A DNA stretch of 12,670 nucleotides, from positions 1 through 12,670 of IMG/VR virus record IMGVR_UViG_2711768058_000009; one strand, given 5' to 3'. The DNA comes from a virus (Duplodnaviria; Heunggongvirae; Uroviricota; Caudoviricetes). Position 1 is the stretch's first letter. Each line of letters begins with the position of its first letter. A program made the position numbers and the translations under genes. A model generated the notes under the pieces. That model was not told the DNA's origin. It worked only from the letters and a program-made list of their open reading frames with translations, and did not search any database. Of the stretch, positions 1 through 12,505 are shown one piece after another.

Positions 1-1287
1 TCATCGTCTCGCTCTGTGGGGCATGTATGGGACACTTTCAGTTAACTCCTTATTGAGCAGTTCTATCTGCCCGATATTGTTATCTTTCATCCATGCTCCG
101 TAAACATTGAAAACCATTTGGGCGTTTGCATGTCCCATCTGGTTTGCGATAAAGCTTGGATTAGCTCCCGCCGATAATGCCCAGCAGGCATAAGTATGCC
201 TGGACTGATAGGCTTTCCTGTGCCGTAGTCCCGCCCGTCTCAATGCCGATGCCCATGAGTCTCTGATGGAGTCTGCTTTGTAGTGGTGGCCTGCCTGCTG
301 GCATTTTTTCACCAGTTGCGGATTAAAAACAAATGTGCATTCATGTCTTACGGTGCGTCCGAACTCCCGAAGTTTGACGTCAATTTGATATTGAGTACCA
401 AATCTTGTCATTTCAGCCTGACTTTTCAGGGTATCAACGGCTGGTTGAACAAGATGAATAACACGATCTGTTCCCGCTTCGGTTTTTGGTAGAGTGAACT
501 CACCGAGTTTTGTATAATTACGACGGATAGTCATTGTTTTAGCTTTTAAATCAATATCCTCCCAGGCAAGAGATATCAGCTCACCATGACGAATGCCTGT
601 GTATACTGCTAAAGACCACAGGTTTTTTGTTTGTTGATGGTGGCAAGCATCAATAAAACGAATGAATTCGTCATGTGTGAGCGGATCTGGTTCTGTTCTT
701 GATCTTTTTAATGGTGTAAGACCGTTAAACGGGTTTGATTCTGTGTATCCGTTGTCAGCTGCAAATTGAAACATACCTGCAATTGTCGTCATGTAGTAAT
801 TAACTGTAACTACAGATCGCCCTTTGACAGGAGTTGTCTTGCCGTTCGAGAGATTGTGATACCCGGTCAATAAATCTTTCCTGATAAAGAGTAAATCTTC
901 TTTTGTTACAGATGAAGCCAGTCGATTTTCCCCTATACGAGGGAGCATGTTTCTCACCACAGATTGATACCGATTGAGCGCGTTACCACCTATCTCGATT
1001 TTCTTCAGATCCAGCCATTTTTCGGCAAGTGCCTTAATGGTTATCTCCCTTTTCCCCAGACCGAAGTGTTTCAGATTTGGAGACTCAGGGAACTGCGCAG
1101 CGTAGTCGAAATTCCCCATTCTGATTGCAAAACAAACTGAAGTCCTGAGTTCGCCTGCAATCTTCCGGTTTTTGGCTGTGTCAGGAATACCGAGGTTTTC
1201 TCTGACACGTTTGCCGTTATAGTGAAACCATATGCGGAGTGAGCCGCCATGGTTTTCAACGCCTGTTGGGTATGATGTGTTACTCAT
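1..1287 (-). CDS. int: Tyrosine-type site-specific integrase (phage integrase family), complete, 428 aa; the attachment site would lie just left of the window
   Basis: Full ORF with stop at 1-3. C-terminal region has the R...HxxR...Y catalytic pattern (e.g. RHTYACW). RBS GGGAGG 4 nt upstream of the ATG at 1287. Sits next to an excisionase-like gene. Confidence 0.9.
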   Translation of the reverse strand: MSNTSYPTGVENHGGSLRIWFHYNGKRVRENLGIPDTAKNRKIAGELRTSVCFAIRMGNFDYAAQFPESPNLKHFGLGKREITIKALAEKWLDLKKIEIGGNALNRYQSVVRNMLPRIGENRLASSVTKEDLLFIRKDLLTGYHNLSNGKTTPVKGRSVVTVNYYMTTIAGMFQFAADNGYTESNPFNGLTPLKRSRTEPDPLTHDEFIRFIDACHHQQTKNLWSLAVYTGIRHGELISLAWEDIDLKAKTMTIRRNYTKLGEFTLPKTEAGTDRVIHLVQPAVDTLKSQAEMTRFGTQYQIDVKLREFGRTVRHECTFVFNPQLVKKCQQAGHHYKADSIRDSWASALRRAGLRHRKAYQSRHTYACWALSAGANPSFIANQMGHANAQMVFNVYGAWMKDNNIGQIELLNKELTESVPYMPHRARR

Positions 1288-1320
1288 TAAACCTCCCAGA
1301 CGTCCAGGAGCATTAACAGG

Positions 1321-1575
1321 TTAACCGGAACTTGCATTTTTGGCACCTGGTTGTTTCTGGTTTTTTATCCACCGCATAATTGCATCTATGTTGTACAGGC
1401 ATTCACTGTTTGGTTTTGGCTCTCCATCCACAGAGAAGTGGATATATTCCCTTCCTAACATCCATGATGTTCTGCGTGCTCGCTCGATAGTGCCTGATTT
1501 TAATCCTGTTGCAGCAATTAAGATGCTTTCAGCGCACCATTCACTGGGTGTTATCTGATAGATAATTTGTTGCAT
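1321..1575 (-). CDS. xis: Excisionase-like small DNA-binding protein (Xis position), about 84 aa from the ATG at 1575; the track ORF starts at a TTG at 1590
   Basis: Small ORF immediately upstream of int on the same strand. Shows the xis-like pattern (ITPSEW...RR..W, basic patches). AAGG 7 nt upstream of the ATG at 1575. Confidence 0.6.
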   Translation of the reverse strand: MQQIIYQITPSEWCAESILIAATGLKSGTIERARRTSWMLGREYIHFSVDGEPKPNSECLYNIDAIMRWIKNQKQPGAKNASSG

Positions 1576-1632
1576 AGAATTGCCTTGCAACCGCCGCCAC
1601 TATAGCTGGTGGACGGCGATCAGGGTTGAACA

Positions 1633-4077
1633 TTAAAAATCAGCTTGACTCGGGATCAGTTTTTGCCAGATTGCTGACACGTATTTTGCCTGGTAACGGG
1701 CGTCATCAAGTGCATTATGGCGCTCACCTTCGAATGGAATAGTCGTTCTGGCATCGAAATCTATCACCAGTCCCAGAGCAACCATCGTTCGTACATCACG
1801 ATCGTTGTTGTAGCGCCACGGACAGGGGATCCCCTGTCGTTCATATGAACGGCGTAAAATTACGTTGTCGAAGTTGGCTCCATTTCCCCACACCTGAACA
1901 AAAAATTCACCGGAGTTTTCGGCGATAAACTCCCTGAACTGCAACAGCGCGTCATCCAACGGGATTTCATTGGTAAGAATGGCGGATTGTGCTTCGCGTG
2001 ACTGTTTCAGCCACCACTTAATGGTGTCCCGATCAATGACTCCGCCAGCAGTTTCCAGATCGATAGTCTTACTAAATTCCGGTCCCATATCTCCGGTTTG
2101 CGGATCGAAAAATATTGCACCTATTGAGATGATCGGGGCATCAGGATTTTTTCCCATGGTTTCAAGGTCGATCATTAGATGGTCACACGTCCTGCTGGTG
2201 GATGTGATTTCGTGATGACCGTTCACCTTAATTGGGTGATCTGCCGTCTCGCCAGTTTCATTATCGCTATCGTGATGCTGATTGCCGCCAGTGTTCTCCT
2301 TGTGTGGATGTTCAGCGCCTTCCATTTCCTCCGGATCATCTTTCTGAACTTCAACCTGATTCTCTTCATCGAATGTTTCCTGGTATGTTGTGTCGTCCAT
2401 CACCGCGCCACAGTCAGGACAGTTACCGCCGCTGGTCTGACCATAGGCGGTGCAAAATTTTTCCACTTCCTGTTGCGCTACTGGTTCAAGAAGTTTCGTT
2501 TCTGGCTCGTTTTGTCGCGCATTTGGGCTGTTTTGTTCTGCATTTTGGTCGTTCTGTTCCGTTTCTTGCTGGTTCTGGTTCACAGAATCGCGGGTTTCAA
2601 TCCCCTTCACCCATTTCGGATCATTCGGGTCGCTAATCCCTTCAACAAATTCTCCACGAGAAGCAGCCAGTAACTTGTCGGCATCAACAGGATTTTGGGG
2701 CGGAATGTTTTTCCGGGCTTCATGGAGTTCTGACCGCAGTTTCTGATATTTCGCATCAACAGAATTTACCTGTGACTGAGCATCCAGCGGCTGCGTGTCC
2801 TGATGATGTTCAGTTGCATCCGGTTCCACTGTTTCAGCCGTTGCCTGTTCATCTGCCATTGCGCAAGATGGTTGCGGTTTTTTTTCATCATCCTGTTTTT
2901 CTTCTTCTGTTACACGCTGCGGCATCGGGGCAGAGGAGCGACCGCAGGCAATATCCACGATTTCCGGATCAGGGTTGGCATGATCGGTTTCAGTCAGTAC
3001 TTTGTTCAGATATTCAGTGACGTGTGCGGGGATGACCTCGATCCCAATTGGTGCTTCTTTTACGGACGCAACCACGATGGCGCGGGAATAATCCAGCCCG
3101 CCAGGCATGGTGATGAATTTGTCGCGGAAAACAGAAAAGGGCGATTTATTTTCAGCGATAATTTCCTCGATACGTTTAGCGTGTGCCGGATGAAGGTTAT
3201 AAATGTCCACGTCCATTGAACGAGCTAGTACGCCAGTGGCTACGTCGCGCGCCAGTGACGTCAGATCGTGAACGAAACCTTCGCCGCGATCAGTGAGGTT
3301 CCCGCCGCCAGCATTAGCGCCGGAAGCCGTGCGCGTGATGCGTGAAATACGATTTCCTTTCATCCACTCTTTTGTCAGCAGACCGCGATCGGTGTAGTCA
3401 GCGTTCAGGTATGATTCGATAAAAGAGGTCATCAGTCCCAGGTCTGAATTTACTGGGGCTGGGAAAACTTTGTCAGTGTCTCGCACCAGTTTGTATAAAT
3501 CCCGAATTTCCAGCGGCCCCAGTTGAGCTGCTTTATTTGAAATGGCACGGGTTGTAACCGTAGGGAGTTCTTCATCCAGTGCACTATGCAATGCCCGAAG
3601 TTCTTCCCGTGAAACGTGCGTTACCGGTTTCTCGCTGCCGTGTTGTGCAAGCCAGCGAACGGGCAGTTCCTGACCAGAAATCGGCAGGAGCATACCATCC
3701 TCAATCTCTGTCATATCTTCGCCGTTGACGTTGGTATTGTCAGTGCTGGCTGGTTTGTGCTGCGAAGAGGAAGAGGGCGCGCTAAATATCATTGTGATGC
3801 CATCTTCCCCGCCTTTTTCATATCGATTGCAGAATTCGGTATCAAACACGCCTTCCGGTGGAAGGTCATTCACAACGGGTAAATGGACACGGACGGGTTT
3901 TTTAAAGTCGTCTTCATCATAATCGTTGTCATCCATTGCAGTAATGCAGCGGGAGATAGCAACAGATAATTTTTTTGCTGTAGTCCAGTAAAAACCACCT
4001 TTAATTCCCAGGCGTTTTCTGACTTTGTCATTTTTTGCTTCGCAATATAGTGCAAATTCTTCTTTATCAGTGCTCAT
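1633..4077 (-). CDS. Large 814-aa protein: N-terminal domain of unknown function, acidic Q/N/E/D-rich linker with one CxxC, C-terminal DEDDh (DnaQ-like) 3'-5' exonuclease domain
   Basis: Long uninterrupted ORF. The three exonuclease motifs are visible in the C-terminal 190 aa: [26 protein letters not shown] 7 nt upstream of the ATG at 4077. Occupies the slot between xis and the early-left genes where lambdoid phages carry exo/bet or recE/recT. Confidence 0.85.
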
Positions 4078-4191
4078 TGATAAACCTCATAACTATTTTA
4101 AGGTTGTATGAACCCCTGCCATTTCAGGCATGCTTAATCAGTTGGTATGGCGTTAATATGGCTGGTGGGTTATCCAGCCGGTGTTTCGTTA

Positions 4192-4353
4192 TTACAGAGA
4201 TACTTTTTTTAACGGGAGGCATTCGCCGGAAAATTTTTGCTCATCTCTTGCCTGAAGGCAGGTTGCCTTACTGTCATAAATTCCGGTAATCATATTCTGT
4301 GACTCACCTGCTGTAAGAAAAACCGTCATCACCAGTGCAAATGCCGAAGTCAT
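4192..4353 (-). CDS. Small hypothetical protein, 53 aa, with a hydrophobic signal-peptide-like N-terminus (MTSAFALVMTVFLTAG...)
   Basis: Not in the ORF track (under 60 aa). The ATG at 4353 overlaps the TGA of the upstream ORF (ATGA, translational coupling). GGAGA 6 nt upstream. Confidence 0.35.
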   Translation of the reverse strand: MTSAFALVMTVFLTAGESQNMITGIYDSKATCLQARDEQKFSGECLPLKKVSL

Positions 4354-4538
4354 CGCTGTTCTCCAAAAATGCCAAGTTGAAGAAGAGCAATTCTTGAAAG
4401 TATGGAATTATCATTCAGAAGATAAGGCTCATATTTCCTCATATTAATGGCATCATCAGTGAAGTCTTTATTACTGAGCTGAATGCCAATATTAAAACAA
4501 CCTTCAGACGTATTAACGTTTGGTAATAACGTTTCCAT
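4350..4538 (-). CDS. Small hypothetical protein, 62 aa
   Basis: ORF with GAGG 8 nt upstream of the ATG at 4538. Its stop overlaps the start of the next small ORF. AT-rich composition suggests an acquired moron. Confidence 0.4.
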   Translation of the reverse strand: METLLPNVNTSEGCFNIGIQLSNKDFTDDAINMRKYEPYLLNDNSILSRIALLQLGIFGEQR

Positions 4539-4713
4539 TATCGCGTCCTCAACAATGAATTTTGTGATGCAGTGCCTGGTGCCTCCAGGTGACGTTAGCC
4601 AGTTAACAATTAACGCCGGATACAGAGCATTCCCGTTACGCCCGTAAAAGACCGCTTGTTTTAACTGTTCCGCGTGCGCTGAGCCGCATTCACCGCATCA
4701 CAAAATTCACTTT

Positions 4714-4766
4714 AAAAAAGGCGGCAGAGCAGTTACGGAGTAAAACTGGTACCGCCAAACGTCACC
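4714..4766 (-). terminator. Candidate intrinsic terminator for leftward transcription: GGCGGUA/UGCCGCC stem followed by U6
   Basis: Minus-strand RNA would read GGCGGUACC...CUGCCGCC then UUUUUU (plus-strand A6 at 4714-4719). The loop is long, so stability is uncertain. Confidence 0.35.
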
Positions 4767-4905
4767 AGAAAATGGATAACAGAGGGCGTTGCAGCGTGGT
4801 TGTCTCTTAAGCGTATGGTCAACCTGACAACCCGGTGTACTCAACGGGGAAGGAATAACCACGCCATACTTACCGCCGCGCCATTTCGCGGATTGCCACA
4901 ACCGG

Positions 4906-4967
4906 AAGCGCACGGTCGAATTAAATTTAACGACACCGTACAGTGAGACGAACTTCACCGTGCGCTT
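4906..4967. repeat. Perfect 11-bp inverted repeat (AAGCGCACGGT / ACCGTGCGCTT) around a 40-nt loop that contains the palindrome TTAAATTTAA
   Basis: Arms read directly at 4906-4916 and 4957-4967. Lies in a roughly 470-bp stretch with no convincing ORF on either strand. Confidence 0.6.
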
Positions 4968-5009
4968 TCGTGTTGTGTGCCTGCTTTTAACCACGTCAGG
5001 CGAGGTGGT

Positions 5010-5038
5010 ATCCTTAAAATCACCACTGTTTTAAGGAT
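5010..5038. promoter_or_regulatory. 10-bp perfect inverted repeat ATCCTTAAAA-N9-TTTTAAGGAT, operator-like, just upstream of the plus-strand membrane ORF
   Basis: Read directly from the sequence. The stem is AT-rich, so it is more likely a protein-binding site than a terminator. It overlaps the stop of the minus ORF and sits 11 nt before the ATG at 5049. Confidence 0.4.
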
Positions 5039-5615
5039 TCATTAAGCAATGTCGCAACCACCAATAAATCCGCTTAAGAACATGAAAATTGATTACTGGT
5101 ATAAAGCGCTTACAGTTGTTGGCGCTGCGTTGTTTGTCTTTAATGGAACGTCTTTTTTTGACAGATATCCCGTTGTTCCATTGGCTTTTTTGTCCGCCGG
5201 CATCTTTTTTATTGGTTTGGGAGAGTGGATTAACCACCCTCTCAAAGTGAGATTTATTGGTCCCGGAGTCTGGGCTCGCGGATATAACCGTTCTTCGTGC
5301 GCACTCGGTATCATCTTCGATATACTTGGTTGTTGCCTGATTGTTACAGGAGTCGTCAAGTTCTTCTGATGTAAAACCGCAAATGGGGCACGCAGAGGGA
5401 ATTTTGAAAAGCGTTTCACCGGGTTCCAGAACAAAATTTTCTGCGGTCTGATTTTGCTTCTCATATTTGTGCTCCGCATCATTGCGAGAGCACATTCTTA
5501 TTCTGAGCGCCTGTTTAAACTCACTGAAGCTGAGGGCTTCTTCGCCTTCGGCAAGGCCTTCGAAGTATTCTTCGTAAGCCTTTTCCATGATTGTGTCGAA
5601 ATCCATATCACTCAT
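5031..5615 (-). CDS. Hypothetical protein; N-terminal 80 aa acidic and helical-looking, C-terminal part low-complexity; true extent uncertain
   Basis: ORF open from the ATG at 5615 to the stop at 5031. The N-terminal part (MSDMDFDTIMEKAYEEYFEGLAEGEE...) looks protein-like. The C-terminal part is exactly codon-antisense to the membrane ORF and K/N/Q/R-rich. The ATG overlaps the stop of the upstream 51-aa ORF. Confidence 0.4.
   Translation of the reverse strand: MSDMDFDTIMEKAYEEYFEGLAEGEEALSFSEFKQALRIRMCSRNDAEHKYEKQNQTAENFVLEPGETLFKIPSACPICGFTSEELDDSCNNQATTKYIEDDTECARRTVISASPDSGTNKSHFERVVNPLSQTNKKDAGGQKSQWNNGISVKKRRSIKDKQRSANNCKRFIPVINFHVLKRIYWWLRHCLMNP
5049..5369 (+). CDS. Small integral membrane protein, 106 aa, about 3 predicted transmembrane helices; candidate superinfection-exclusion or abortive-infection moron
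   Basis: Three hydrophobic segments of about 20 aa separated by charged loops. AT-rich. Transcribed opposite to the surrounding leftward operon, as accessory exclusion genes often are. Lies entirely antisense to the minus ORF 5031..5615, so only one may be real. Confidence 0.45.
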   Translation: MSQPPINPLKNMKIDYWYKALTVVGAALFVFNGTSFFDRYPVVPLAFLSAGIFFIGLGEWINHPLKVRFIGPGVWARGYNRSSCALGIIFDILGCCLIVTGVVKFF

Positions 5616-5763
5616 CTGAGTTTCTTTCCAGCCAGCGACGCGCACCAGCTTCGGTTTTAAACGTTTTGCTTCTGGTATACGTCATGGCGGTGAATGTGCC
5701 GTCCTGGTTGGGGAACACACCGCATACCAGAGATTCGTTGTTGCCAAGATTGAGCGTATCCAT
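5608..5763 (-). CDS. Small hypothetical protein, 51 aa, first gene of the leftward early operon
   Basis: Not in the ORF track. GAGG 7 nt upstream of the ATG at 5763. Stop overlaps the next gene's start (ATGAGTGA). Sequence looks protein-like (…TFKTEAGARRWLERNSDE). Confidence 0.4.
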   Translation of the reverse strand: MDTLNLGNNESLVCGVFPNQDGTFTAMTYTRSKTFKTEAGARRWLERNSDE

Positions 5764-5938
5764 GTTGACCTCATTTCCCCTTAACGCCGGGTAGCGGAAC
5801 TTAAAAACCTGCTGCGCTGCTATTCAAAGTTATCCCGCCGTCATGTTCATACGCCTCGGGCTGGCTACTTAACCCCTGACCACTGCCGGGTAACTCGAGG
5901 TATTGCCCTGCATTCTGTGGGGCGGAGTGGGTGGTAGG

Positions 5939-5988
5939 TATATAATGTACTTTTCGTTCACTGTTGTAAAGTACTTTGAGTACATTTT
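5939..5988 (-). promoter_or_regulatory. pL-like leftward promoter (TTTACA -17- CATTAT on the minus strand) overlapped by operator-like GTAC-core motifs
   Basis: Motifs ATGTACT (5945-5951), AGTACT (5970-5975) and CTTTGAGTACAT (5974-5985). The last is the exact reverse complement of ATGTACTCAAAG found right of the repressor gene. Confidence 0.4.
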
Positions 5989-6060
5989 GTGTGTAAAAAA
6001 ATGAGATGGGATAAAGTGAAGCACAAACCCGGAGGGTGATGCTACCGGATTTATGCTGGT

Positions 6061-6480
6061 TTAAGAGGCTTTTTGTTTTTTCTTTCGTGCTAACTCTTCG
6101 TAAATTGCATTGTACTTCTGTTTTTTCTCCTCAAGAGTTTTTAAAAGTTCATCTGTCTCACTGTCAGGGAGCTCGTCCAGAAGGTCAATGATGATTTTTT
6201 GTCTTGGATTTAACTCCTGATAGAAACGTACCTGTCCACCTTCTTCAGTATCCTCTCCCAAAAGATAGGTTGGTGTTGTTCCTATGAGTGTTGCTAATTC
6301 CCTTAATTTCTCTCGGCGAGGAATTGTTTCGCCATTAAACCATTTGCTAACCGCTTTTGGTGTTAATTTCATTCGACGGGCAATTTCTGCCTGCCTTCCA
6401 TGTTGTTCATAACCAGCGTTATCACAGGCTAGCGCAAGCCTGCTGGCGAACTCTTTACGCGCTTTATCTTCATGAACCAT
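6061..6480 (-). CDS. Prophage repressor, 139 aa: N-terminal XRE-family helix-turn-helix, C-terminal coiled-coil-like region, no S24 peptidase domain (non-cleavable, RacR-like)
   Basis: HTH signature (QAEIARRMKLTPKAVSKWFNGETIP). Divergent from a Cro-like gene. No Shine-Dalgarno sequence before the ATG, and a CTGACA -17- TATCAT promoter places the transcription start at about the ATG (leaderless, like lambda cI from pRM). Confidence 0.8.
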   Translation of the reverse strand: MVHEDKARKEFASRLALACDNAGYEQHGRQAEIARRMKLTPKAVSKWFNGETIPRREKLRELATLIGTTPTYLLGEDTEEGGQVRFYQELNPRQKIIIDLLDELPDSETDELLKTLEEKKQKYNAIYEELARKKKQKAS

Positions 6481-6559
6481 AAGTTCAATGATATTCGCTC
6501 TTGGATGTACTGTCAGTTCTGTTATAGCATGTACTCAAAGTTCACATTATGAGGATGAT
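6481..6559. promoter_or_regulatory. OR-like divergent promoter/operator region between the repressor and the Cro-like gene
   Basis: ATGTACT at 6505-6511 and 6529-6535. The 12-mer ATGTACTCAAAG (6529-6540) is mirrored left of the repressor. The leaderless pRM-like promoter on the minus strand overlaps these motifs. Confidence 0.5.
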
Positions 6560-6814
6560 ATGAACCAGAAAACACTTGAAGATGTAATCAAAACTGTTCG
6601 CGTTTCTGTTGTGGCCGACGTTTGTGGTGTCAGCCAAAGAGCAATCTACAAATGGATGGATAACGGAAAATTGCCTCGCACAGAATATACCGGCGAAACA
6701 AATTACGCTGAAAAAATCGCTCTTGCATCAAACGGATTATTTTCTGCCGATGCAATTTTAACTATTGGCAGGAATAAAACTACTACGAAAAAGCTGATGG
6801 GAGTTGATTCATGA
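6560..6814 (+). CDS. Cro-like (Cro/CI-type HTH) small regulator, 84 aa from the ATG at 6560
   Basis: GAGGA 4 nt upstream of the ATG at 6560. HTH-like segment (VADVCGVSQRAIYKWMDNGKLP). Divergent from the repressor. Stop overlaps the start of the next gene (ATGA). Confidence 0.7.
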   Translation: MNQKTLEDVIKTVRVSVVADVCGVSQRAIYKWMDNGKLPRTEYTGETNYAEKIALASNGLFSADAILTIGRNKTTTKKLMGVDS

Positions 6815-7233
6815 AAATCAAGCATGAGCATATCGAATCAGTGCTGTTAGCTATGGCTGCTGCAAAAGGGCAGGCATGGGTCGCTAACGCCATTACTGAG
6901 GAATATCTGCGCCATGGGGGAAGTGAATTGCCCCTCGTACCAGGCAGGGACTGGAACAATCAGCAGAATATCTATCACCGTTGGTTGAAAGGTGAAACGA
7001 AAGCGCAAAGGGAAAAAATTCAGAAACTGATCCCTGCGGTTCTGGCAATTCTTCCGCGCGAGCTGCGTCACAGGCTAAGTATTTACGACACTCTGGAACG
7101 CCGTGCATTACTGGCGGCGCAGGAAGCGTTGAGTACGGCAATTGATGCACATGATGATGCAGTCCAGGCCGTTTACCGGAAAGCGTATTTCAGCGACGGC
7201 GGGTCATCCGGCGAGTCTGTTGTGGTGCATTGA
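6811..7233 (+). CDS. YdaT-like protein, 140 aa, in the CII position of a Rac-type immunity region
   Basis: Translationally coupled to the Cro-like gene. The order repressor / Cro-like / this gene / DUF1376 matches the Rac racR-ydaS-ydaT-ydaU arrangement. Family assignment is from memory. Confidence 0.7.
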   Translation: MKIKHEHIESVLLAMAAAKGQAWVANAITEEYLRHGGSELPLVPGRDWNNQQNIYHRWLKGETKAQREKIQKLIPAVLAILPRELRHRLSIYDTLERRALLAAQEALSTAIDAHDDAVQAVYRKAYFSDGGSSGESVVVH

Positions 7234-7319
7234 TATTTATGCCAGACCTCTGCTGATTCTGTTGATTGGGGAATCACAGAATATCACCAGAGGATGGTTC
7301 GTCACAAGATGAGGCAATT

Positions 7320-8333
7320 ATGGCCGCATTACCATACATGCAACTGTACATAGCTGATTACCTGGCTGACACCATGCATTTGTCCGCAGAGGAGCACGGC
7401 GCGTATTTGTTGCTGATGTTCAATTACTGGCAAACAGGGAAACCAATACCAAAAAACAGACTGGCAAAAATCGCCCGTCTGACTAACGAGCGATGGGCTG
7501 ATGTAGAACCATCCTTGCGGGAGTTTTTTTGCGATAACGGCGACGAATGGGTGCATCTTCGGGTTGAGGAAGATTTGGCATCAGTCAGGGAAAAATTAAC
7601 CAAAAAATCGGCCGCAGGAAAAGCATCTGTTCAGGCCAGAAGAAACAGAAAGGAAGCAGATGTTAAAACAAAACACGAGGGAAATTTAACAGGTGTTCAA
7701 ACAGATGTTGGAGTGGCGTTTGAACATTATGCCAACACAAAGGCAACTAATAAAGATACAGATCTAAAAGAATTAAACCCCACACATAACGCGCACGTGC
7801 GCGAGAGTATTCCGACCAGTGAGTTGAATGGTGCGCCGTTGCAGACAGCTGCTCCCGAATACCTGGACGGACTTAGCGAACCCATCGGAAAATTTCCGAT
7901 GACTGGTGACTGGCATCCGTCGCCGGATTTTCGACGACGGGCGGCGCTGTGGGGAGTGGCTCAGCCGGAGCCAGAATTTACACCTGCTGAACTTGCCGCC
8001 TTCCGGGACTACTGGGCAGCGGAGGGGAAAGTTTTTACGCAGGTTCAGTGGGAGCAGAAATTCGCCCGTCACGTAAATCACGTCAGGGCGCAGGTTAAAC
8101 CAGTCAGTAAGGGGGTAAACCATGCGGCAGCAGCATCTGGAACCGCATCACGGGCAGTTCAGGAAATTCGGGCAGCACGTGAACAGTGGGAGCGGGAAAA
8201 CGGATTTGTCAGCGACGGAAACGGCGTGGAAGCTGTGGGAACTCATGGGGGAGGTTTATTCAAACCGCTGGACCCGGAAGAACGGTTCCGCACCTCCGAA
8301 GCTCTGGATTGCCCAGATTGGCGCGATGACTGA
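7320..8333 (+). CDS. DUF1376 (YdaU-like) replication initiation protein, O-protein analogue, 337 aa from the ATG at 7320
   Basis: N-terminal signature LYIADYLADTMHLSAEEHGAYLLLMFNYW fits the DUF1376 pattern. GAGG 6 nt upstream of the ATG at 7320; the track ORF starts at an upstream TTG. Sits in the O position before a P-like gene. Confidence 0.75.
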   Translation: MAALPYMQLYIADYLADTMHLSAEEHGAYLLLMFNYWQTGKPIPKNRLAKIARLTNERWADVEPSLREFFCDNGDEWVHLRVEEDLASVREKLTKKSAAGKASVQARRNRKEADVKTKHEGNLTGVQTDVGVAFEHYANTKATNKDTDLKELNPTHNAHVRESIPTSELNGAPLQTAAPEYLDGLSEPIGKFPMTGDWHPSPDFRRRAALWGVAQPEPEFTPAELAAFRDYWAAEGKVFTQVQWEQKFARHVNHVRAQVKPVSKGVNHAAAASGTASRAVQEIRAAREQWERENGFVSDGNGVEAVGTHGGGLFKPLDPEERFRTSEALDCPDWRDD

Positions 8334-8787
8334 GCAGCAAATCCGGCAGGTCTGTCGGCAGTGCATGGACCGTTGCCGGGCGGGTGAAACATGGCCTCCT
8401 GACCTGGCTGAGTTTGTGGCGCTGATTTCGGAAAGCGGAGCCAATCCATTTGGTCTTACGGTGGATGCCGTGATGGAAGAGTACCGGCGCTGGCGCAATG
8501 AATCCTGGCGGTACGACGGGAGTGATAAATACCCGTGGCCACAGCCTGTGCTGTACCACATTTGCCTCGAGATGCGCACCAGAGGGATTGAACGTCAGAT
8601 GACTGAAAGTGAGCTGAAACGACTTGCAGAACGACTGTTGGCCAAATGGGCAAAGAATGTTGGTAACGGCATGAGTGTTCCGCCAGTGCGACGACAACTG
8701 GAAGGGCCAAAACACCCGCCAGGGCCAACGCCAATTGAGTTACTGAAACAGGAATATGAGCGCCGGAAAGCGGCTGGTTTTGTCTGA
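8122..8787 (+). CDS. Lambda replication protein P-like helicase loader, 221 aa
   Basis: Clear similarity to the lambda P central and C-terminal region (…YPWPQPVLYHICLEMRTRGIERQMTESELKRLAERLL… versus lambda …YPWKSNAHYWLVTNLYQNMRANALTDAELRRKAADEL…). Strong RBS AAGGGGG 6 nt upstream of the ATG at 8122. Overlaps the 3' end of the upstream gene by 212 nt in another frame; alternative starts are 8245 and 8326. Confidence 0.7.
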   Translation: MRQQHLEPHHGQFRKFGQHVNSGSGKTDLSATETAWKLWELMGEVYSNRWTRKNGSAPPKLWIAQIGAMTEQQIRQVCRQCMDRCRAGETWPPDLAEFVALISESGANPFGLTVDAVMEEYRRWRNESWRYDGSDKYPWPQPVLYHICLEMRTRGIERQMTESELKRLAERLLAKWAKNVGNGMSVPPVRRQLEGPKHPPGPTPIELLKQEYERRKAAGFV

Positions 8788-8820
8788 ATTTGAGAAATGA
8801 TTTTGTCGGAGGAAATTTTA

Positions 8821-9534
8821 ATGGAAACCGTTTTTGACGCACTGAAAGCACTGAAAAGAGCCTCTTCACAGGAGGTGTCGGCCCGCCTTGGAATCAGCCG
8901 CGAAGATGCTGTCAACGAGCTGTGGAAGCTGAAACGCCGTGGTGAAGCAGATAACAAGGGGTCGATGTGGTGGCTGACGATTGAGGCAACTGAAGCGGCC
9001 ACAAAAACCACTGCAGAGATGCTGATTAACGCGATTGAACAGCATGGTCCTCAGTCGGCTGACGAACTGGCGTTAATGTTCGGGATTACCTCCCGCCGGG
9101 CGAATTCATCACTGGCGATGGCAATCAGCAAAGGTCGTCTGATTCGCGTTAATCAGGACGGTAAATATCGTTACTGCATACCGGGCGATAATTTACCGAC
9201 AGAGCCGAAAGCTGCATCGGTAACGGAAACCGATGGTAAAGCCTTTCCTCAGCCAGCAGGTGTTGCGTTACCAGTCCGGGAAGCGGAAACACAGGAAGAA
9301 ATTAAAACTGAAAGTGTGGCGGTCACAGTGCAGTCACAGCCGTCGTTCACCAGAAAGCATCCGGATAGTCTGATTTTACCATCGCTGCATGTGGCTAACC
9401 GCGAACTGCGCCGGGCAAAAGGTCAGGTTCAGAAGTGGGAGCGAGTCTGTGCTGCGCTGCGTGAGCTGAACAAGCACCAGGATATTGTTCGACAGATTAC
9501 TGATTCATCCTGTTGTGTTACATCAGAAAAGTGA
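8821..9534 (+). CDS. Hypothetical prophage protein with two tandem winged-helix-like segments and a C-terminal coiled coil (possibly DUF1627-like), 237 aa
   Basis: GGAGG 8 nt upstream of the ATG at 8821. Internal duplication of an HTH-like segment. Family assignment is tentative. Confidence 0.7.
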
Positions 9535-9549
9535 TTGCAGGGGACGCTG

Positions 9550-10053
9550 ATGGCAAGAGTATTTACACCAGAAGAGCGGGAAAAAATTAAGGGGCAGGTT
9601 GTTGAACTCGTACGCCAGAGCGGTCGCGAGACGTTACGGCAACTGGAAGCTAAAACAGGTGCAACAAGATATCTGATGAGCGTTCTCGCCAGAGAGCTGG
9701 TTGCCAGTGGTGATGTATACAACTCTGGCTACGGGTTATTTCCGTCTGAACAGGCTCGTAAAGACTGGCAAAACGCCCGCAAAAAACTTTCAAGGGCAAA
9801 GGTGAAGAAACCGGCTGTGGTTGATCCGGACCTTATCTGGTCATTACCAGACGGAGAAATACGCCGCTACGACAGGCGCCTGAACATAATCTGTCGCGAG
9901 TGCCGGAATAGTGAAGTTATGCAGCGAGTGCTGGCGTTTTATCAGGGGGTGGGGTCAGGAGGTGGTGCTGTGAGTGAAATTAGCTATCAGGCTTCAATTG
10001 CCGCTGGCATTCGCATCAAAGGAGAGGAGCATGGAAATAAAACCAGAAGATGA
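9550..10053 (+). CDS. Hypothetical protein, 167 aa, with an N-terminal winged-helix-like segment
   Basis: AGGGGA upstream of the ATG at 9550. Tightly packed after the preceding gene. Confidence 0.65.
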   Translation: MARVFTPEEREKIKGQVVELVRQSGRETLRQLEAKTGATRYLMSVLARELVASGDVYNSGYGLFPSEQARKDWQNARKKLSRAKVKKPAVVDPDLIWSLPDGEIRRYDRRLNIICRECRNSEVMQRVLAFYQGVGSGGGAVSEISYQASIAAGIRIKGEEHGNKTRR

Positions 10054-10387
10054 GTTAAGTAATATTGTTTTATTTCCTGTAAAAGAGGATGACCCGCGTA
10101 ATCAGGTTAATTTTATTTATGAGCCATCGGAAAGACCATACTGCCATCACGCCTCTGTCCGGGTTGATGAAAAAGAGCGTCAGGTCCGGTGCAAAATATG
10201 CGGTGCGGTGGTGGAACCATTTGACTGGATGCTCTCTGTGGCGAAAAGAGAAACCAGACTGGCGGATGATGTAAAGCTATTGAGGCAGGAGGAACGGGAA
10301 AGGCGGAAAAATATAGAAAAGCTAATCCAGATTGAGCGTAACGCGAAAGCGCGGATACGCAGGGCGACAAAATCCAGAACTGAATAA
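10031..10387 (+). CDS. Hypothetical zinc-ribbon-like (C-HH…CxxC) protein with a basic coiled-coil tail, 118 aa
   Basis: GGAGAGGAG 3 nt upstream of the ATG at 10031. Overlaps the end of the upstream gene by 23 nt. Contains CHH…CKICG. Confidence 0.6.
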   Translation: MEIKPEDELSNIVLFPVKEDDPRNQVNFIYEPSERPYCHHASVRVDEKERQVRCKICGAVVEPFDWMLSVAKRETRLADDVKLLRQEERERRKNIEKLIQIERNAKARIRRATKSRTE

Positions 10388-10415
10388 TTAAATTTAGCTC
10401 TGTTAAAAATTTAAT
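10387..10415. repeat. AT-rich inverted repeat ATTAAATTT-N11-AAATTTAAT immediately after a stop codon
   Basis: Read directly from the sequence; 9-bp arms. The stem is all A/T, so it is more likely a protein-binding site than a terminator. Confidence 0.45.
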
Positions 10416-10451
10416 CCTTAACCGGAGGGATTTCTGCACTCTCAGAACATC

Positions 10452-10480
10452 AGGAGGCCGCCCGAAAGGGCGGTAGTTAA
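10452..10480 (+). promoter_or_regulatory. Structured translation-initiation region: AGGAGG, then a 6-bp GC stem with a GAAA tetraloop, then 7 nt to the ATG
   Basis: AGGAGG at 10452-10457. Stem CCGCCC/GGGCGG with GAAA loop at 10458-10473. ATG at 10481. The hairpin would shorten the effective distance between the Shine-Dalgarno sequence and the start codon. Confidence 0.45.
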
Positions 10481-10663
10481 ATGCGAAAGTTTAAAATAAT
10501 TATTGAAACGGGAATAGCCGGTGGAGATTTCGAGGATGAATTCGAAGTGGATGATGATGCGACGCCTGATGAAATACATGACGAAGCAAAAGATATTTTC
10601 TTTAACTACTGCAATTACTCATATTACGAAATAAAAGACGAAGAGGAAGAGCAAAATGGCTGA
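10481..10663 (+). CDS. Very acidic small protein, 60 aa (about 20 D/E versus 5 K/R)
   Basis: ORF MRKFKIIIETGIAGGDFEDEFEVDDDATPDE… Stop overlaps the start of the next small ORF (ATGGCTGA). Confidence 0.5.
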   Translation: MRKFKIIIETGIAGGDFEDEFEVDDDATPDEIHDEAKDIFFNYCNYSYYEIKDEEEEQNG

Positions 10664-10832
10664 TTTTGGTTCAACTAAATACAACGTCAGTTTTGAAGCA
10701 TGGCATGAACTGTTAATGGACTATGCAGAGTTACGTGGTGGCAGTGCTGCTGATGCTGAAGCATGGCGTGATGATTATGAAGCAGGAAAAACTCCGGTCG
10801 AAGCATATTGTGATGAGTGGGGCGATGAATGA
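10656..10832 (+). CDS. Acidic small protein, 58 aa
   Basis: Not in the ORF track (under 60 aa). MADFGSTKYNVSFEAWHELLMDYAELRGG… Start overlaps the upstream stop, and its own stop overlaps the ATG at 10829, so three genes are coupled. Confidence 0.45.
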   Translation: MADFGSTKYNVSFEAWHELLMDYAELRGGSAADAEAWRDDYEAGKTPVEAYCDEWGDE

Positions 10833-11344
10833 GCGAGATTAATTATCAGGAAGGGCATGAAACGGCAGGGCAGGCAAAACCAGTTGCATGGCGATATCGC
10901 TACGTGAAAAAAGACGTTACAGACTTTCAGGGGAAGCCGTGGGCTGGTGACTGGAAATATGTACCGACAAAAGAGGATTGTAACGACAGGCCGAACTATG
11001 AAATTCAGGCCTTATTCATCGGCCCGCCAGTCACGGTGACATCAGAAGGACTGGTTAAAGCCGTGCGCTTTTATGAACAGGTAAAGCGTGAGAATCCGCC
11101 AGTCGAAACAGGAGCATGGAAGGATGCTGTTGACTGGGTGCTCAGAGAGGCCTGCTGCGCTGCCATTCTGGGTAAAGCCGACAATCCACCAGCATCCGGC
11201 AATCAGGTTAGCGAATTAACAATGTGGGTTAAACGACTGGTCAGTCAACTGAAAAAAGCTCAGCCGGACTGCAAATTACCGGAGAAGGCGATGGATTACC
11301 TGAAACGAAATGGACTGATAAGCGTGGAGGATGTTTTACGATGA
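10829..11344 (+). CDS. Hypothetical prophage protein, 171 aa
   Basis: Clean ORF, translationally coupled to the upstream small genes. No family recognised with confidence. Confidence 0.7.
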   Translation: MSEINYQEGHETAGQAKPVAWRYRYVKKDVTDFQGKPWAGDWKYVPTKEDCNDRPNYEIQALFIGPPVTVTSEGLVKAVRFYEQVKRENPPVETGAWKDAVDWVLREACCAAILGKADNPPASGNQVSELTMWVKRLVSQLKKAQPDCKLPEKAMDYLKRNGLISVEDVLR

Positions 11345-11390
11345 ATATTTAGACTAAAGAGTTTGTAACGCTATGTAAGTGATTTTTTCT

Positions 11391-11424
11391 GGTTTAGATA
11401 TTTATATGTCCGGCCAAATTGAGG
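11391..11424. repeat. Copy A of an imperfect direct repeat of about 35 bp (GGTTTAG…ATATTTA…TGTCCGGCCAAA)
   Basis: Aligns with 11662-11697 (GGTTTAG…ATATTTA…TGTGCCGGACAAA). Sits upstream of the small membrane ORF. Confidence 0.4.
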
Positions 11425-11464
11425 TGTGTTTAAATGTTATTGCACATTGATTGTAGGGGGAATA

Positions 11465-11644
11465 ATGAAAAACGCATTGCAGTTTTTGTTTGTTGCGTTC
11501 TGGTTGTTCGCATCATGTATGCCCATCATCTTCACAGCAAGGTATATGGAAAAAATTGATGTTTTGATATTAATGTTTGGACATATAAATGCCCTTTTTT
11601 TAGGGGTGTTCATGGCGGTCATGTGCATTGAATACTGGCGGTAA
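11465..11644 (+). CDS. Small hydrophobic membrane peptide, 59 aa, about 2 transmembrane helices
   Basis: GGGGG 4 nt upstream of the ATG at 11465. Very AT-rich. Sequence MKNALQFLFVAFWLFASCMPIIF…LFLGVFMAVMCIEYWR. Flanked by the direct repeats. Confidence 0.45.
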   Translation: MKNALQFLFVAFWLFASCMPIIFTARYMEKIDVLILMFGHINALFLGVFMAVMCIEYWR

Positions 11645-11661
11645 ATACAGCGAACGCCATT

Positions 11662-11697
11662 GGTTTAGTTGGATATTTACTGTGCCGGACAAAAACG
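11662..11697. repeat. Copy B of the direct repeat of about 35 bp, upstream of the hok locus
   Basis: Aligned by eye to copy A at about 70% identity with one 3-4 nt indel. Confidence 0.4.
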
Positions 11698-11698
11698 G

Positions 11699-11727
11699 TT
11701 TGCGGGGAAATCTTAGTTAAGTAGAAT
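11699..11727 (+). promoter_or_regulatory. Candidate promoter for the hok mRNA (weak -35 TTTGCG, 17-nt spacer, -10 TAGAAT)
   Basis: -10 TAGAAT at 11722-11727 is a 5/6 match to consensus. Position is appropriate for a long hok leader. Confidence 0.3.
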
Positions 11728-11789
11728 AACTGCGGGTGCTTGAGGCTATCTGTCTCAGGCATGAACACCAAAAGGCAGATAGAGAAAAG

Positions 11790-11855
11790 CCCCAGTTAAC
11801 ATTACGCGTCCTGCAAGACGCTTAACATTAATCTGAGGCCATATCTATGCGACAC
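11790..11855 (-). ncRNA. Predicted Sok-like antisense RNA; extent approximate
   Basis: Minus-strand promoter TTGACC (plus 11884-11889) -16- GCTAAT (plus 11862-11867) would fire leftward across the leader ORF's RBS and ATG (11835-11849), as in canonical hok/sok loci. Confidence 0.3.
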
Positions 11856-11906
11856 ATAGAGATTAGCCTCTTACGGACCGAAAGGTCAAGGAGAAGCAGG
11901 CTATGA
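11847..11906 (+). CDS. Short mok-like leader ORF, 19 codons, ending in an ATGA overlap with the hok start
   Basis: GAGG 8 nt upstream of the ATG at 11847. Stop TGA at 11904-11906 overlaps the hok ATG at 11903-11905. No long mok frame with an ATG/GTG/TTG start was found overlapping hok. Confidence 0.35.
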   Translation: MRHIEISLLRTERSRRSRL

Positions 11907-12058: not shown

Positions 12059-12066
12059 GAGACCAG

Positions 12067-12504: not shown

Positions 12505-12505
12505 C

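Follow-up and report, generated by a model that had tools for sequence, protein, structure and literature searches.

Predicted HK022-type operators and a putatively leaderless transcript around a short prophage repressor gene

The GTAC-containing repeats on either side of the repressor gene in the viral DNA analysed here (IMG/VR record IMGVR_UViG_2711768058_000009, positions 1–12,670; the whole 12,670-nucleotide stretch is hereafter denoted the window) are, as predicted from sequence, five binding sites of the prophage repressor, arranged in a switch which closely copies that of coliphage HK022. Taken together, the region is probably a lambdoid prophage immunity switch on the HK022 plan, with both its operators and a leaderless repressor transcript from a PRM-type promoter. 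As a phage control region it is unremarkable and of a well-understood type, each of its elements having a studied counterpart.

Operator sites and their conservation

The operator unit is a 15-bp dyad, TG(T/A)AC-N5-GT(T/A)CA (TGWAC-N5-GTWCA), five copies of which lie around the repressor gene (Table 1). The initial annotation had proposed an OL/OR-type arrangement of a 12-mer with a GTAC-core half-site. The arrangement is borne out by homology: in their sequence, their spacing and the way they overlap promoters, the sites correspond to those of an annotated and studied system, HK022. The unit, however, is the 15-bp dyad and not the 12-mer. Likewise, the GTAC copies are real, but a GTAC core is too narrow a description: the half-sites read G(T/A)AC, and those of OR3 are GAAC/GTTC. 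The motif copies listed earlier are all present, but OR3, which lies on the start codon, had been missed.

A scoring matrix for which the five annotated sites of HK022 record X16093 were the sole input returns, as its top five sites in the window, exactly OL1, OL2, OR1, OR2 and OR3 (scores 13.7–19.8), whilst shuffled sequences yield 0.11 sites at an equal or better score. The highest-scoring site, OR3, is identical to HK022 oR 3000–3014, itself located over the HK022 cI start, and its dyad centre (6480) coincides with the A that opens the repressor start codon. The start-to-start spacings also follow HK022, being 24 bp for OR1–OR2, 33–34 bp for OR2–OR3 and 24 bp for OL1–OL2. The OR region can be aligned nearly gap-free with those of HK022, a 933W-like phage, and Klebsiella, Citrobacter and Providencia phages, with the three operators, the PR hexamers, the T/A/T positions of the PRM -10 element and the ATG all in register; the OL region aligns almost without gaps to HK022 OL, and in both regions each motif copy falls on an operator annotated in X16093. 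Motif copies overlap promoter hexamers on both sides of the gene, as originally described, OL1 lying on the PL -10 hexamer and OR2 spanning the PR spacer and the PRM -35 hexamer, whilst OR1 spans the predicted PR start. At the positions matching the HK022 OL3 (2278–2292) and the HK022 operator downstream of cro (3324–3338, about 300 bp from OR), no site with up to 2 mismatches is present in the window.

A scan of species-representative genomes for relatives of the repressor returned a single locus (Shigella flexneri), which is too few for a comparison, and so 80 viral contigs with 96–97.5% identity, comprising 55 unique sequences, were used. As these relatives are very close, part of the invariance observed amongst them reflects recent ancestry. 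In the 55 unique sequences only 5 of 50 half-site columns are variable. The central bases vary in 9 of 25 columns (Fisher p=0.011 against the half-sites), and the remaining intergenic DNA in 44 of 173 (p=0.020). The half-sites of OL1 show singleton variation only, with central bases that vary freely, and the central bases of OL2 are highly variable. OR2 and OR3 are each invariant in all 55; OR3 is conserved across four genera, and the OR2 core ACTnTCAGTTC is fixed across genera. All 80 relatives have unchanged OR2 and OR3 operators and PRM -35 and -10 hexamers, as well as the same 7 nt and ATG thereafter.

Table 1. Predicted features around the repressor gene (positions in the window).
Feature	Positions	Strand	Description
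DicF RNA	4719–4770		PL side of repressor gene
DUF1391 (ydfA-like) gene	5608–5763		PL side of repressor gene
PL -10 hexamer CATTAT	5942–5947	-	TTTACA-17-CATTAT; homologous to HK022 pL -10 CATCAT (X16093)
OL1 operator TGTACTTTTCGTTCA	5946–5960		Overlaps PL -10 hexamer and spacer; 0 mismatches; matrix score 16.2; centre about -18 from predicted PL start; aligns with HK022 oL 2201–2215
PL -35 hexamer TTTACA	5965–5970	-	Identical to HK022 pL -35; kept in 78/80 relatives
OL2 operator AGTACTTTGAGTACA	5970–5984		Abuts PL -35 hexamer; 1 mismatch; matrix score 13.7; aligns with HK022 oL 2225–2239
Stable hairpin	6020–6057	-	Just past repressor stop; 13-bp stem; -19.3 kcal/mol; z = -5.4 against shuffles
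Repressor gene	6061–6480	-	139 aa; HK022/933W CI-type HTH domain and DicA-like C-terminal tail
OR3 operator TGAACCATAAGTTCA	6473–6487		0 mismatches; matrix score 19.8
PRM -10 hexamer TATCAT	6488–6493	-	Ends 7 nt before ATG; invariant in 80/80 relatives
PR -35 hexamer TTGGAT	6501–6506	+	In register with HK022 pR -35 TTGACT
OR2 operator TGTACTGTCAGTTCT	6506–6520		1 mismatch; matrix score 14.2; aligns with HK022 oR 3033–3047
PRM -35 hexamer CTGACA	6516 to 6511	-	Within OR2
PR extended -10 TGtTATAGC	6520–6528	+	In register with HK022 pR -10 CATAAT; same 16-nt spacer
OR1 operator TGTACTCAAAGTTCA	6530–6544		0 mismatches; matrix score 16.9; aligns with HK022 oR 3057–3071
Cro-like gene	6560–6814	+	84 aa; Shine-Dalgarno GAGGA 6551–6555, -6.1 kcal/mol pairing
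YdaT (CII-like) box TTGATT-N6-AATCAA	6804–6821		Exact pattern match at cro/ydaT junction
ydaT gene	6811–7233		89% identity to Rac YdaT

Promoters and the repressor transcript

The PR and PL hexamers occupy the same positions as in HK022. Amongst the 80 relatives, the PL -10 hexamer (ATAATG on the plus strand) is present in 73, and the PR -35 hexamer reads TTGAAT in 79, versus TTGGAT in the window. We infer that TGtTATAGC acts as the extended -10 element of PR; TGTTATAGC is present at this point in 71 of the 80. Its hexamer, TATAGC, is without the usual final T. A second candidate for the PR -10, CATTAT at 6545–6550, was rejected as unlikely: its use would leave the transcript without the cro Shine-Dalgarno sequence, 76 of the 80 relatives have CATTGT instead, and the hexamer does not line up with the element annotated in HK022. 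Promoter-like matches in the region number 2, against 2.2 in shuffles, and so the promoter scan alone proves nothing.

The PRM-type promoter CTGACA-17-TATCAT, noted in the initial annotation about 7 nt before the repressor ATG, was located on the minus strand (6516 to 6488) and agrees with the consensus at 10 of 12 positions. It is the only promoter-like site on its strand upstream of the repressor ATG, and no earlier start codon lies between this ATG and the preceding in-frame stop. The ATG was also correctly described as having no Shine-Dalgarno sequence: pairing of the 20 nt upstream with the anti-Shine-Dalgarno sequence reaches only -1.9 kcal/mol, versus -6 to -12.5 kcal/mol for well-defined genes of the window. 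In lambda, cI mRNA made from PRM is leaderless, with the -10 hexamer 6–7 nt before the AUG and no Shine-Dalgarno sequence. The predicted HK022 PRM -10 likewise ends 7 nt before the ATG, and the X16093 annotation gives ribosome-binding sites for cro, cIII and kil and none for cI. The T, A and final T of the -10 hexamer are fixed, at the same distance from the ATG, in HK022, the 933W-like phage and the Klebsiella, Citrobacter and Providencia phages, such that the predicted PRM–ATG layout is common to phages of Escherichia and these three genera. The repressor transcript is predicted to start at, or within one base of, the A of the ATG, which would make the mRNA leaderless; this reading is well supported in silico. 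Two short repressors encoded beside ydaT genes, PaaR2 and RacR, have been found to be expressed from leaderless transcripts by 5′-RACE or primer extension; RacR has three mapped starts, two of which are leadered, the strongest transcript being leaderless (PMC8630535, PMC9638921, PMC9986795).

It is possible, but rather unlikely, that the main repressor mRNA is instead leadered and begins far upstream, either at a YdaT-activated promoter close to where cro meets ydaT or at one that has gone unrecognised. In favour of this are the exact YdaT box at the junction, the two leadered starts of RacR, and the fact that promoter-like matches are no commoner than expected by chance. In CP-933P the same YdaT motif has been footprinted at the same position (PMC8630535, PMC9638921, PMC9986795), where it adjoins PRE933P, a YdaT-dependent promoter from which the repressor operon is transcribed; the box in the window thus likely marks an establishment promoter region for the repressor. 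An establishment promoter, however, would supplement and not replace the maintenance promoter, as in lambda and CP-933P, and a transcript with a leader would also be without a Shine-Dalgarno sequence. The invariance of TATCAT, the 7-nt distance and the ATG in the 80 relatives, the retention of T/A/T across four genera, and the leaderless PaaR2 and strongest RacR transcripts all argue for a start at the ATG. A transcript from a YdaT-activated promoter would run antisense to cro.

The hairpin just past the repressor stop codon may serve as a terminator or insulator that separates the repressor gene from PL. Its loop is the most variable spot among the relatives, and its tail is U-poor, for which reason a consensus scan does not call it a terminator. 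A 51-aa open reading frame on the minus strand (5869–6024) has no family match and overlaps the operators, and was therefore treated as non-coding.

The repressor, its partner and their neighbourhood

Over residues 4–102, the repressor has 49.5% identity to HK022 CI (E 3e-24), and residues 1–73 have 50.7% identity to a 933W-type CI. The recognition helix, PKAVSKW, is close to that of HK022 (PKAISKW) and of the 933W-type protein (SKGVSKW), with K42, S45, K46 and W47 invariant in the alignment of the three. Both alignments stop where the C-terminal domains of the HK022 and 933W proteins begin. A Pfam search of the 139-aa protein gave HTH_3 only and no S24 self-cleavage domain. BLASTP against K-12 DicA gave 29% identity over 112 aa (E 1e-14), reaching the C-terminus, and PHROG 5736 covers residues 27–139; the NCBIfam DicA subfamily scores 56 bits, below its cut-off of 101. 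Membership of RacR was rejected, the match being limited to 33 aa of the HTH (E 1e-4). Amongst solved structures, only a weak match to the P22 C2 N-terminal domain (E 0.008) was found. A single-sequence AlphaFold2 model was poor (pLDDT 51, pTM 0.27) and is used as a basis for nothing here, and a literature search for the protein accession, WP_000233320, returned no paper.

The Cro-like gene and the repressor gene are read in opposite directions, away from each other. The Cro-like product is 62% identical to HK022 Cro (45/73 residues, E 3e-34), aligned from Met1; membership of YdaS was rejected (E 0.031), and solved structures gave no match to this protein. On the other side of the repressor gene lies a dicBF-type operon, with the gene order of Qin and phage Tritos; the window spans only a portion of the prophage. 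About a fifth of complete E. coli genomes (1046 of 5426) carry the immunity module, among them O26, O103 and other enterohaemorrhagic strains.

The loss of the CI C-terminal domain raises the question of whether the sites are relics in a cryptic prophage, the short repressor no longer regulating, or only the Cro-like protein binding. The window also carries a PR -35 down-mutation which is unique among the relatives, and has no equivalent of OL3. We nevertheless regard this reading as very unlikely, given the significantly stronger conservation of the half-sites than of central and flanking intergenic bases, the near identity of the recognition helix to that of HK022, and the frequency of the module in E. 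coli. It is also carried in phage records the names of which (vB_EcoS, Tritos) suggest isolated or induced phages, and short repressors such as DicA, PaaR2 and RacR are all functional.

The mirrored repeat

The 12-mer ATGTACTCAAAG at 6529–6540 (plus strand) and its reverse complement at 5974–5985 (minus strand), which first drew attention to the region, are confirmed as its only two occurrences. The inverted match is perfect over 13 nt, ATGTACTCAAAG(T), one more than first described, at 5973–5985 and 6529–6541. The left copy is included in OL2, itself a perfect palindrome (GTACT-N3-AGTAC), and the right copy in OR1; the mirror is thus OL2 and OR1 sharing half-sites and, in the window sequence, central bases too. 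Only 5 of the 80 relatives keep the exact 13-nt mirror; the other 75 share runs of 4–7 nt. Covariation of the OL2 and OR1 central bases through concerted evolution was considered and rejected, as OR1 reads TCAAA in 50 of the 55 unique sequences whilst OL2 varies freely. The shorter ATGTACT and AGTACT copies were also found where they had been reported, at 5945–5951, 5970–5975 and 6505–6511. ATGTACT occurs four times in the window (5945, 5979 on the minus strand, 6505 and 6529), against 0.90 expected, with 2 of 200 shuffles reaching four, and all four copies fall within the two regulatory regions.

That a perfect 13-nt inverted repeat brackets exactly one gene might also indicate the ends of a mobile or recombining immunity cassette. 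The DNA to the left of about 5936 is present in 3447 records, versus 1046 for the immunity module, and so a mosaic joint near this position is indicated. As an account of the repeats themselves, however, a cassette is highly improbable, since the exact mirror is rare among the relatives and the repeats are two of five matrix-fitting sites that lie over promoter elements in register with the HK022 operators.

Chance similarity in AT-rich promoter DNA, in which short motifs do recur intergenically, is effectively refuted: only 1 of 2000 dinucleotide shuffles produced an exact inverted match of 13 nt shared by the intergenic stretches on either side of the repressor gene; the dyad pattern with up to 1 mismatch occurs 7 times in the window, against 1.25 expected, with none of 200 shuffles reaching 7; and the sites are both the top five matrix matches and conserved in position across genera. 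Five of the seven pattern matches fall within the 3% of the window which flanks the repressor gene; two stray sites, each with 1 mismatch, lie inside an exonuclease gene at 1895 and 3393.

Comparison with known switches

The likeness to HK022 extends to the operator consensus, the promoters, the repressor DNA-binding domain and Cro, but the systems differ in several respects. The annotated HK022 cI open reading frame encodes 235 aa and includes an S24 self-cleavage/oligomerisation domain, which the repressor in the window is without. HK022 has nun, cIII and kil in its leftward operon, where the window has a dicBF-type operon, and the rightward genes of the window are of Rac type, with ydaT. 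As related in PMC8053113, which cites Carlson & Little 1993, HK022 CI binds cooperatively to adjacent operators with OL–OR looping, and HK022 possesses OL3 and a site downstream of cro, neither of which is seen in the window. Because the CI C-terminal domain is absent here, cooperative binding and looping can be surmised only from the 24-bp spacing and from the octamerisation of PaaR2.

The operators are also similar to those of 933W, being 15-bp rotationally symmetric sites with G-W-A-C at positions 2–5, a two-site OL, and OR3 over the cI start. In 933W the operators are 15-bp dyads in which positions 2–5 are decisive, PRM is repressed when OR3 is occupied, and, of the recognition-helix residues K42, S45 and K46, all conserved here, K42 has been modelled as a base-contacting residue and K46 was targeted by a K46A mutant (PMC3317979, PMC5977221). 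The 933W half-sites are, however, flanked by C/G (CGTAC...GTACG), and the first residue of the helix is S41, versus P41 in the window; these differences suggest an immunity specificity different from that of 933W. The 933W repressor is, in addition, full length and cleavable.

With DicA of Qin, the repressor shares its size (about 135–139 aa) and its construction from an HTH and a helical tail with LP(D/E)SE...EEL and no cleavage domain, as well as the position of its gene upstream of a ydfA(DUF1391)-...-DicF-dicB operon. The DNA-binding domain and operators in the window are, in contrast, of HK022 type, as is the partner gene, an HK022-type cro, whereas the DicA domain and switch have been likened to those of P22 or lambda repressors; DicA has no cleavage domain and is countered by an antirepressor, Rem (PMC10448788).

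The PaaR2 and RacR switches also pair a short non-cleavable repressor with a divergently transcribed cro-like gene, beyond which lies ydaT. The O3 operator of RacR overlaps the RacR ATG, as OR3 does the ATG of the repressor in the window; PaaR2 has a second operator set at a PL-like promoter; and CP-933P and Rac carry a YdaT box at the cro/ydaT junction. Their operators differ, being GTTTAGTAA palindromes for PaaR2 and TAGGC-n3-GCCTA for RacR, and the window has no toxin–antitoxin genes after its repressor gene. In lambda, OR2 abuts the PRM -35 element and activates PRM, and OR3 overlaps PRM itself. The OR2 of the window instead covers the PRM -35 element (centre -33), whilst OR3 is centred on the predicted +1; positive autoregulation of the lambda type therefore cannot be assumed.

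Proposed mechanism

On the HK022 plan, repressor dimers would bind the operators through the PKAVSKW recognition helix. Filling of the two pairs spaced by 24 bp, OR1 with OR2 and OL1 with OL2, would block RNA polymerase at PR (TTGGAT-16-TGtTATAGC), which is predicted to transcribe the cro-ydaT-replication genes, and at PL, which is predicted to transcribe the dicBF-type operon. The repressor itself would be made from the PRM-type promoter; at high levels it would fill OR3 and shut PRM, giving negative autoregulation, and OR3 is likely the site of autorepression. The Cro-like protein probably acts through these operators as well, taking them in reverse order. With no LexA-type cleavage domain and a DicA-like tail, the repressor would presumably be induced via an antirepressor or by flipping of the switch, and RecA-stimulated self-cleavage is unlikely to be the route.

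Biological implications

The region adds nothing new on how phage switches work. What it provides is an exact predicted map of operators and promoters for an immunity module widespread in E. coli, the left promoter of which would drive DicF/DicB-type division inhibitors. It also points to module shuffling within a repressor gene, a DNA-binding domain of HK022 type being joined to a tail of DicA type, and cross-immunity with HK022-type phages is predicted. As a tentative proposal, which we hold to be less likely than not, widespread E. coli and Shigella prophages may carry the HK022 CI DNA-binding domain together with its complete operator set, grafted onto an uncleavable DicA-type tail. If the specificity is truly unchanged, the resident prophages would render their hosts immune to phages of HK022 immunity whilst themselves being uninducible through RecA.

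With a leaderless start codon at the dyad centre of OR3, the first codons of the repressor (Met-Val) would be fixed by the operator. If so, a single 15-bp element would serve as transcription start, translation start and autorepression site, a compact regulatory device.

Predicted operators on both sides of the repressor gene

The initial annotation had proposed an OL/OR-type operator arrangement around the repressor gene, built on a mirrored 12-bp motif. Its motif coordinates were all borne out when the sequence was read over 5700–6900: ATGTACTCAAAG lies at 6529–6540, with its exact reverse complement at 5974–5985. The arrangement itself stands, since five sites match the operators annotated for the immunity region of coliphage HK022 (GenBank X16093), although one of them, OR3, was absent from the original list of sites.

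Predicted operators and consensus matches in the window, with the repressor sites annotated in HK022
Site	Record	Positions	Sequence	Basis
oL	HK022	2201–2215	TGTACTTAAAGTTCA	15-bp repressor site annotated in X16093
oL	HK022	2225–2239	AGTACCAATAGTACA	15-bp repressor site annotated in X16093
oR over cI start	HK022	3000–3014	TGAACCATAAGTTCA	annotated in X16093
oR	HK022	3033–3047	TGTACTATCAGTTCC	annotated in X16093
oR	HK022	3057–3071	TGAACCATAAGTTCA	annotated in X16093
OL1	window	5946–5960	TGTACTTTTCGTTCA	TGWAC-N5-GTWCA, ≤1 mismatch
OL2	window	5970–5984	AGTACTTTGAGTACA	TGWAC-N5-GTWCA, ≤1 mismatch
OR3	window	6473–6487	TGAACCATAAGTTCA	TGWAC-N5-GTWCA, ≤1 mismatch
OR2	window	6506–6520	TGTACTGTCAGTTCT	TGWAC-N5-GTWCA, ≤1 mismatch
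OR1	window	6530–6544	TGTACTCAAAGTTCA	TGWAC-N5-GTWCA, ≤1 mismatch
In exonuclease VIII gene	window	1895–1909	TGAACAAAAAATTCA	TGWAC-N5-GTWCA, 1 mismatch
In exonuclease VIII gene	window	3393–3407	TGTAGTCAGCGTTCA	TGWAC-N5-GTWCA, 1 mismatch

With up to one mismatch, the consensus occurs seven times in the window against 1.25 expected, a number reached in none of 200 shuffles; the two matches in the exonuclease VIII gene fit this chance expectation. So that the test would not be circular, only the five HK022 sites went into a weight matrix; its top five matches in the window are exactly OL1, OL2, OR1, OR2 and OR3 (scores 13.7–19.8), a level at which shuffled sequences yield 0.11 sites. OR3 is identical to the HK022 site over the cI start, OL and OR can each be aligned to their HK022 counterparts base for base, and the −35 and −10 hexamers of both PR and PL are in register with the X16093 promoter annotations. 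A record resembling the Shiga-toxin phage 933W has the same annotated layout, with OR3 over the cI start, OR2 and OR1 after it, and no more than two sites in OL. An HK022-like OL3 and an operator downstream of cro were not found in the window. Judged by sequence, the operators are those of HK022.

A repeat search extended the perfect inverted match to 13 nt (5973–5985 versus 6529–6541), and an exact inverted match of this length between the two intergenic flanks arose in one of 2000 dinucleotide shuffles. All four copies of ATGTACT (0.9 expected in the 12.7-kb window) adjoin the repressor gene. The same search revealed a longer family, ATGTACT-N4-GTTC, at 5945, 6505 and 6529, with a fourth copy on the opposite strand (5971–5985); the copies are spaced 24 bp start to start on either side of the gene, and each is a pseudo-palindrome, GTACT-N3-AGT(A/T)C. 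The exact 13-nt mirror is kept in only 5 of 80 close relatives, the run common to OL2 and OR1 being just 4–7 nt in the other 75. The mirror is a by-product of OL2 and OR1 happening to have the same central bases in this sequence, and not a functional unit. Covariation of these bases between OL2 and OR1 was tested among the relatives, with a negative result.

Conservation of the sites

The close family comprises 80 viral contigs of 96–97.5% identity (55 unique sequences). Among the unique sequences, 5 of 50 columns vary in the operator half-sites, compared with 9 of 25 in the central bases (Fisher p 0.011) and 44 of 173 in other intergenic positions (p 0.020). OR2, OR3, both PRM hexamers, the following 7 nt and the ATG are without variation in the 80 contigs. 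Half-sites that vary less than the centre between them are what recognition by a protein would be expected to leave, and agree with the 933W data, in which operator positions 2–5 are critical, with more tolerance at positions 6, 7 and the centre (PMC3317979, PMC5977221).

When OR regions of Klebsiella, Citrobacter and Providencia phages were added, the alignment remained almost gap-free. The invariant columns are TG.ACCAT..GT.C.A (OR3 together with the start codon), three PRM −10 positions (T, A and the last T) that keep a constant 7-nt distance, ACT.TCAGTTC (OR2), and G.AC....AGT.C (OR1).

Codon 2 (Val) and the first part of codon 3 fall in the left half of OR3, and the ATG in its central bases. 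All three repressors (HK022, 933W-like and window) begin with Met1-Val2, which suggests mutual constraint between the operator and the repressor N-terminus. In the Klebsiella and Citrobacter phage relatives L006 and L089, the longest repressor ORFs (2489–3211 and 1156–1911, respectively) start 4–15 codons upstream of the conserved Met-Val in OR3; a homologous start and leaderless layout would imply that these extensions are untranslated. Annotation in the Klebsiella phage record covers just 2843–3211 of the ORF, and the Citrobacter phage record carries none.

Two positions set the window apart from its relatives: the PR −35 hexamer (6501–6506) is TTGGAT rather than TTGAAT (79 of 80), and the cro Shine-Dalgarno region (6551–6556) is GAGGAT rather than GAGGGT (77 of 80). 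No relative exceeds 97.5% identity over 5900–6600, which places the window in a somewhat divergent lineage.

Promoters and the predicted leaderless start

The initial annotation had also described a repressor ATG lacking a Shine-Dalgarno sequence and placed about 7 nt after a promoter, and both features are present. The ATG at 6480 opens the 139-residue ORF 6061–6480; anti-Shine-Dalgarno pairing in the 20 nt upstream amounts to just −1.9 kcal/mol, whereas the cro-like gene reaches −6.1 and other genes as much as −12.5. On the minus strand, CTGACA-17-TATCAT (6516 to 6488) matches at 10 of 12 promoter positions, its −10 hexamer ending 7 nt ahead of the A of the ATG. The promoter scan alone carries no weight, because promoter-like matches in the region (2) are not above those in shuffles (2.2). 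The PR −10 hexamer is missing its last T and has a TG extended −10 motif in front of it.

Since transcription from this PRM would start at or beside the A of the ATG, we infer a leaderless repressor mRNA. Analogues lend support: PaaR2 of CP-933P is leaderless by 5′-RACE, N-terminal sequencing and mass spectrometry, and the strongest racR transcript is leaderless, with RacR operator O3 overlapping its ATG (PMC8630535, PMC9638921, PMC9986795); X16093 annotates ribosome-binding sites for cro, cIII and kil, and none for cI.

Right after the repressor stop codon lies a stable hairpin (6020–6057, minus strand; 13-bp stem, −19.3 kcal/mol, z −5.4), which could be a terminator barring PRM transcripts from the PL operon. 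Among 55 relatives, no spot varies more than the hairpin loop. The tail is U-poor, and a consensus scan did not call the hairpin a terminator.

The repressor and its mosaic neighbourhood

Pfam assigns the repressor to HTH families only. In tblastn searches of phage records, residues 4–102 are 49.5% identical to HK022 CI and residues 1–73 are 50.7% identical to 933W-type CI. The aligned recognition helices are near-identical (PKAVSKW in the window, PKAISKW in HK022, SKGVSKW in the 933W-like phage); in work on the 933W repressor, which recognises 15-bp dyads, K42 was modelled as one of the base-contacting residues and K46 was a target of mutagenesis (PMC3317979, PMC5977221). The alignment stops where the self-cleavage domains of long repressors start. 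The C-terminal part instead resembles DicA, the Qin prophage repressor (29% over 112 residues, E 1e-14, reaching the C-terminus). A solved-structure search gave just a weak match to P22 C2, a single-sequence structure model was too poor for use, a scan of species-representative genomes found one locus only, and a literature search found no paper on the protein.

The cro-like gene starts at 6560, not 6561, and its 84-residue product matches HK022 Cro from Met1 onwards at 62% identity; the gene that follows is 89% identical to Rac YdaT. RacR and YdaS were rejected as homologues of the repressor and Cro-like protein. An exact TTGATT-N6-AATCAA inverted repeat (TTGATTCATGAAAATCAA, 6804–6821) covers both the stop codon of the cro-like gene and the ATG of ydaT (6811), matching in form and position the footprinted YdaT site of CP-933P (PMC9986795); the repressor gene probably has an establishment promoter here that YdaT activates.

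On the left side are a ydfA-like gene of the DUF1391 family (5608–5763) and a DicF RNA (4719–4770, minus strand; Rfam, 70.5 bits, gathering score 48), on account of which the PL operon is a cell-division-inhibitor operon of dicBF type, as in Qin and phage Tritos. The module is therefore mosaic, combining an HK022-type switch, a DicA-type repressor tail, Rac-type rightward genes and Qin-type leftward genes. It occurs in 1046 of 5426 complete E. coli genomes. Between PL and the DUF1391 gene, the leader (5803–5936) is shared at 88–94% identity by 3447 E. coli records and several unrelated phages, far more than the 1046 genomes with the module, which points to a putative mosaic joint immediately left of OL and to conservation of the leader. 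At the window's right end, a sok antitoxin RNA (11734–11905, plus strand; Rfam, 106.7 bits) implies a hok/sok-type toxin-antitoxin locus.

Proposed switch and related systems

The proposed mechanism builds on the layout of sites relative to genes and the homology to HK022, both shown here. Repressor dimers would fill OR1 and OR2 (centres about +2 and −22 of PR), blocking PR (TTGGAT-16-TGtTATAGC), and OL1 and OL2 (centres about −18 and −42 of PL), blocking PL (TTTACA-17-CATTAT) and silencing the dicBF-type operon. The PRM transcript would begin at or beside the A of the ATG. Because OR3 is centred exactly on base 6480, high repressor concentrations should shut PRM; in 933W, OR3 occupancy represses PRM (PMC3317979, PMC5977221). 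With OR2 (centre −33) sitting on the PRM −35 hexamer, activation of PRM as in lambda cannot be taken for granted. The Cro-like protein presumably competes for the same operators.

According to PMC8053113, HK022 CI occupies neighbouring operators cooperatively, with looping between OL and OR; for a repressor without the CI C-terminal domain, the 24-bp spacing and PaaR2 octamerisation suggest, by analogy, that cooperativity and looping may also occur. Lacking a cleavage domain, the repressor should be induced independently of RecA-stimulated cleavage, possibly through an antirepressor or switch flipping, as described for DicA (PMC10448788).

The element would work like the HK022 switch, with which it has in common the DNA-binding domain, cro, and operator sequences and positions, but its repressor lacks a CI-type C-terminal domain. 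It has the architecture of DicA-type short repressors, yet scores below the curated NCBIfam DicA cut-off (56 versus 101 bits). With Rac and CP-933P it shares ydaT and the YdaT box, but not the repressor and cro. The operator interpretation is supported, and would not surprise a specialist.

Transcription start, translation start and autorepression site may all coincide in OR3, which would then fix the first codons as Met-Val. The short, non-cleavable repressor of this element may keep HK022 specificity, in which case it would confer cross-immunity to HK022-type phages.
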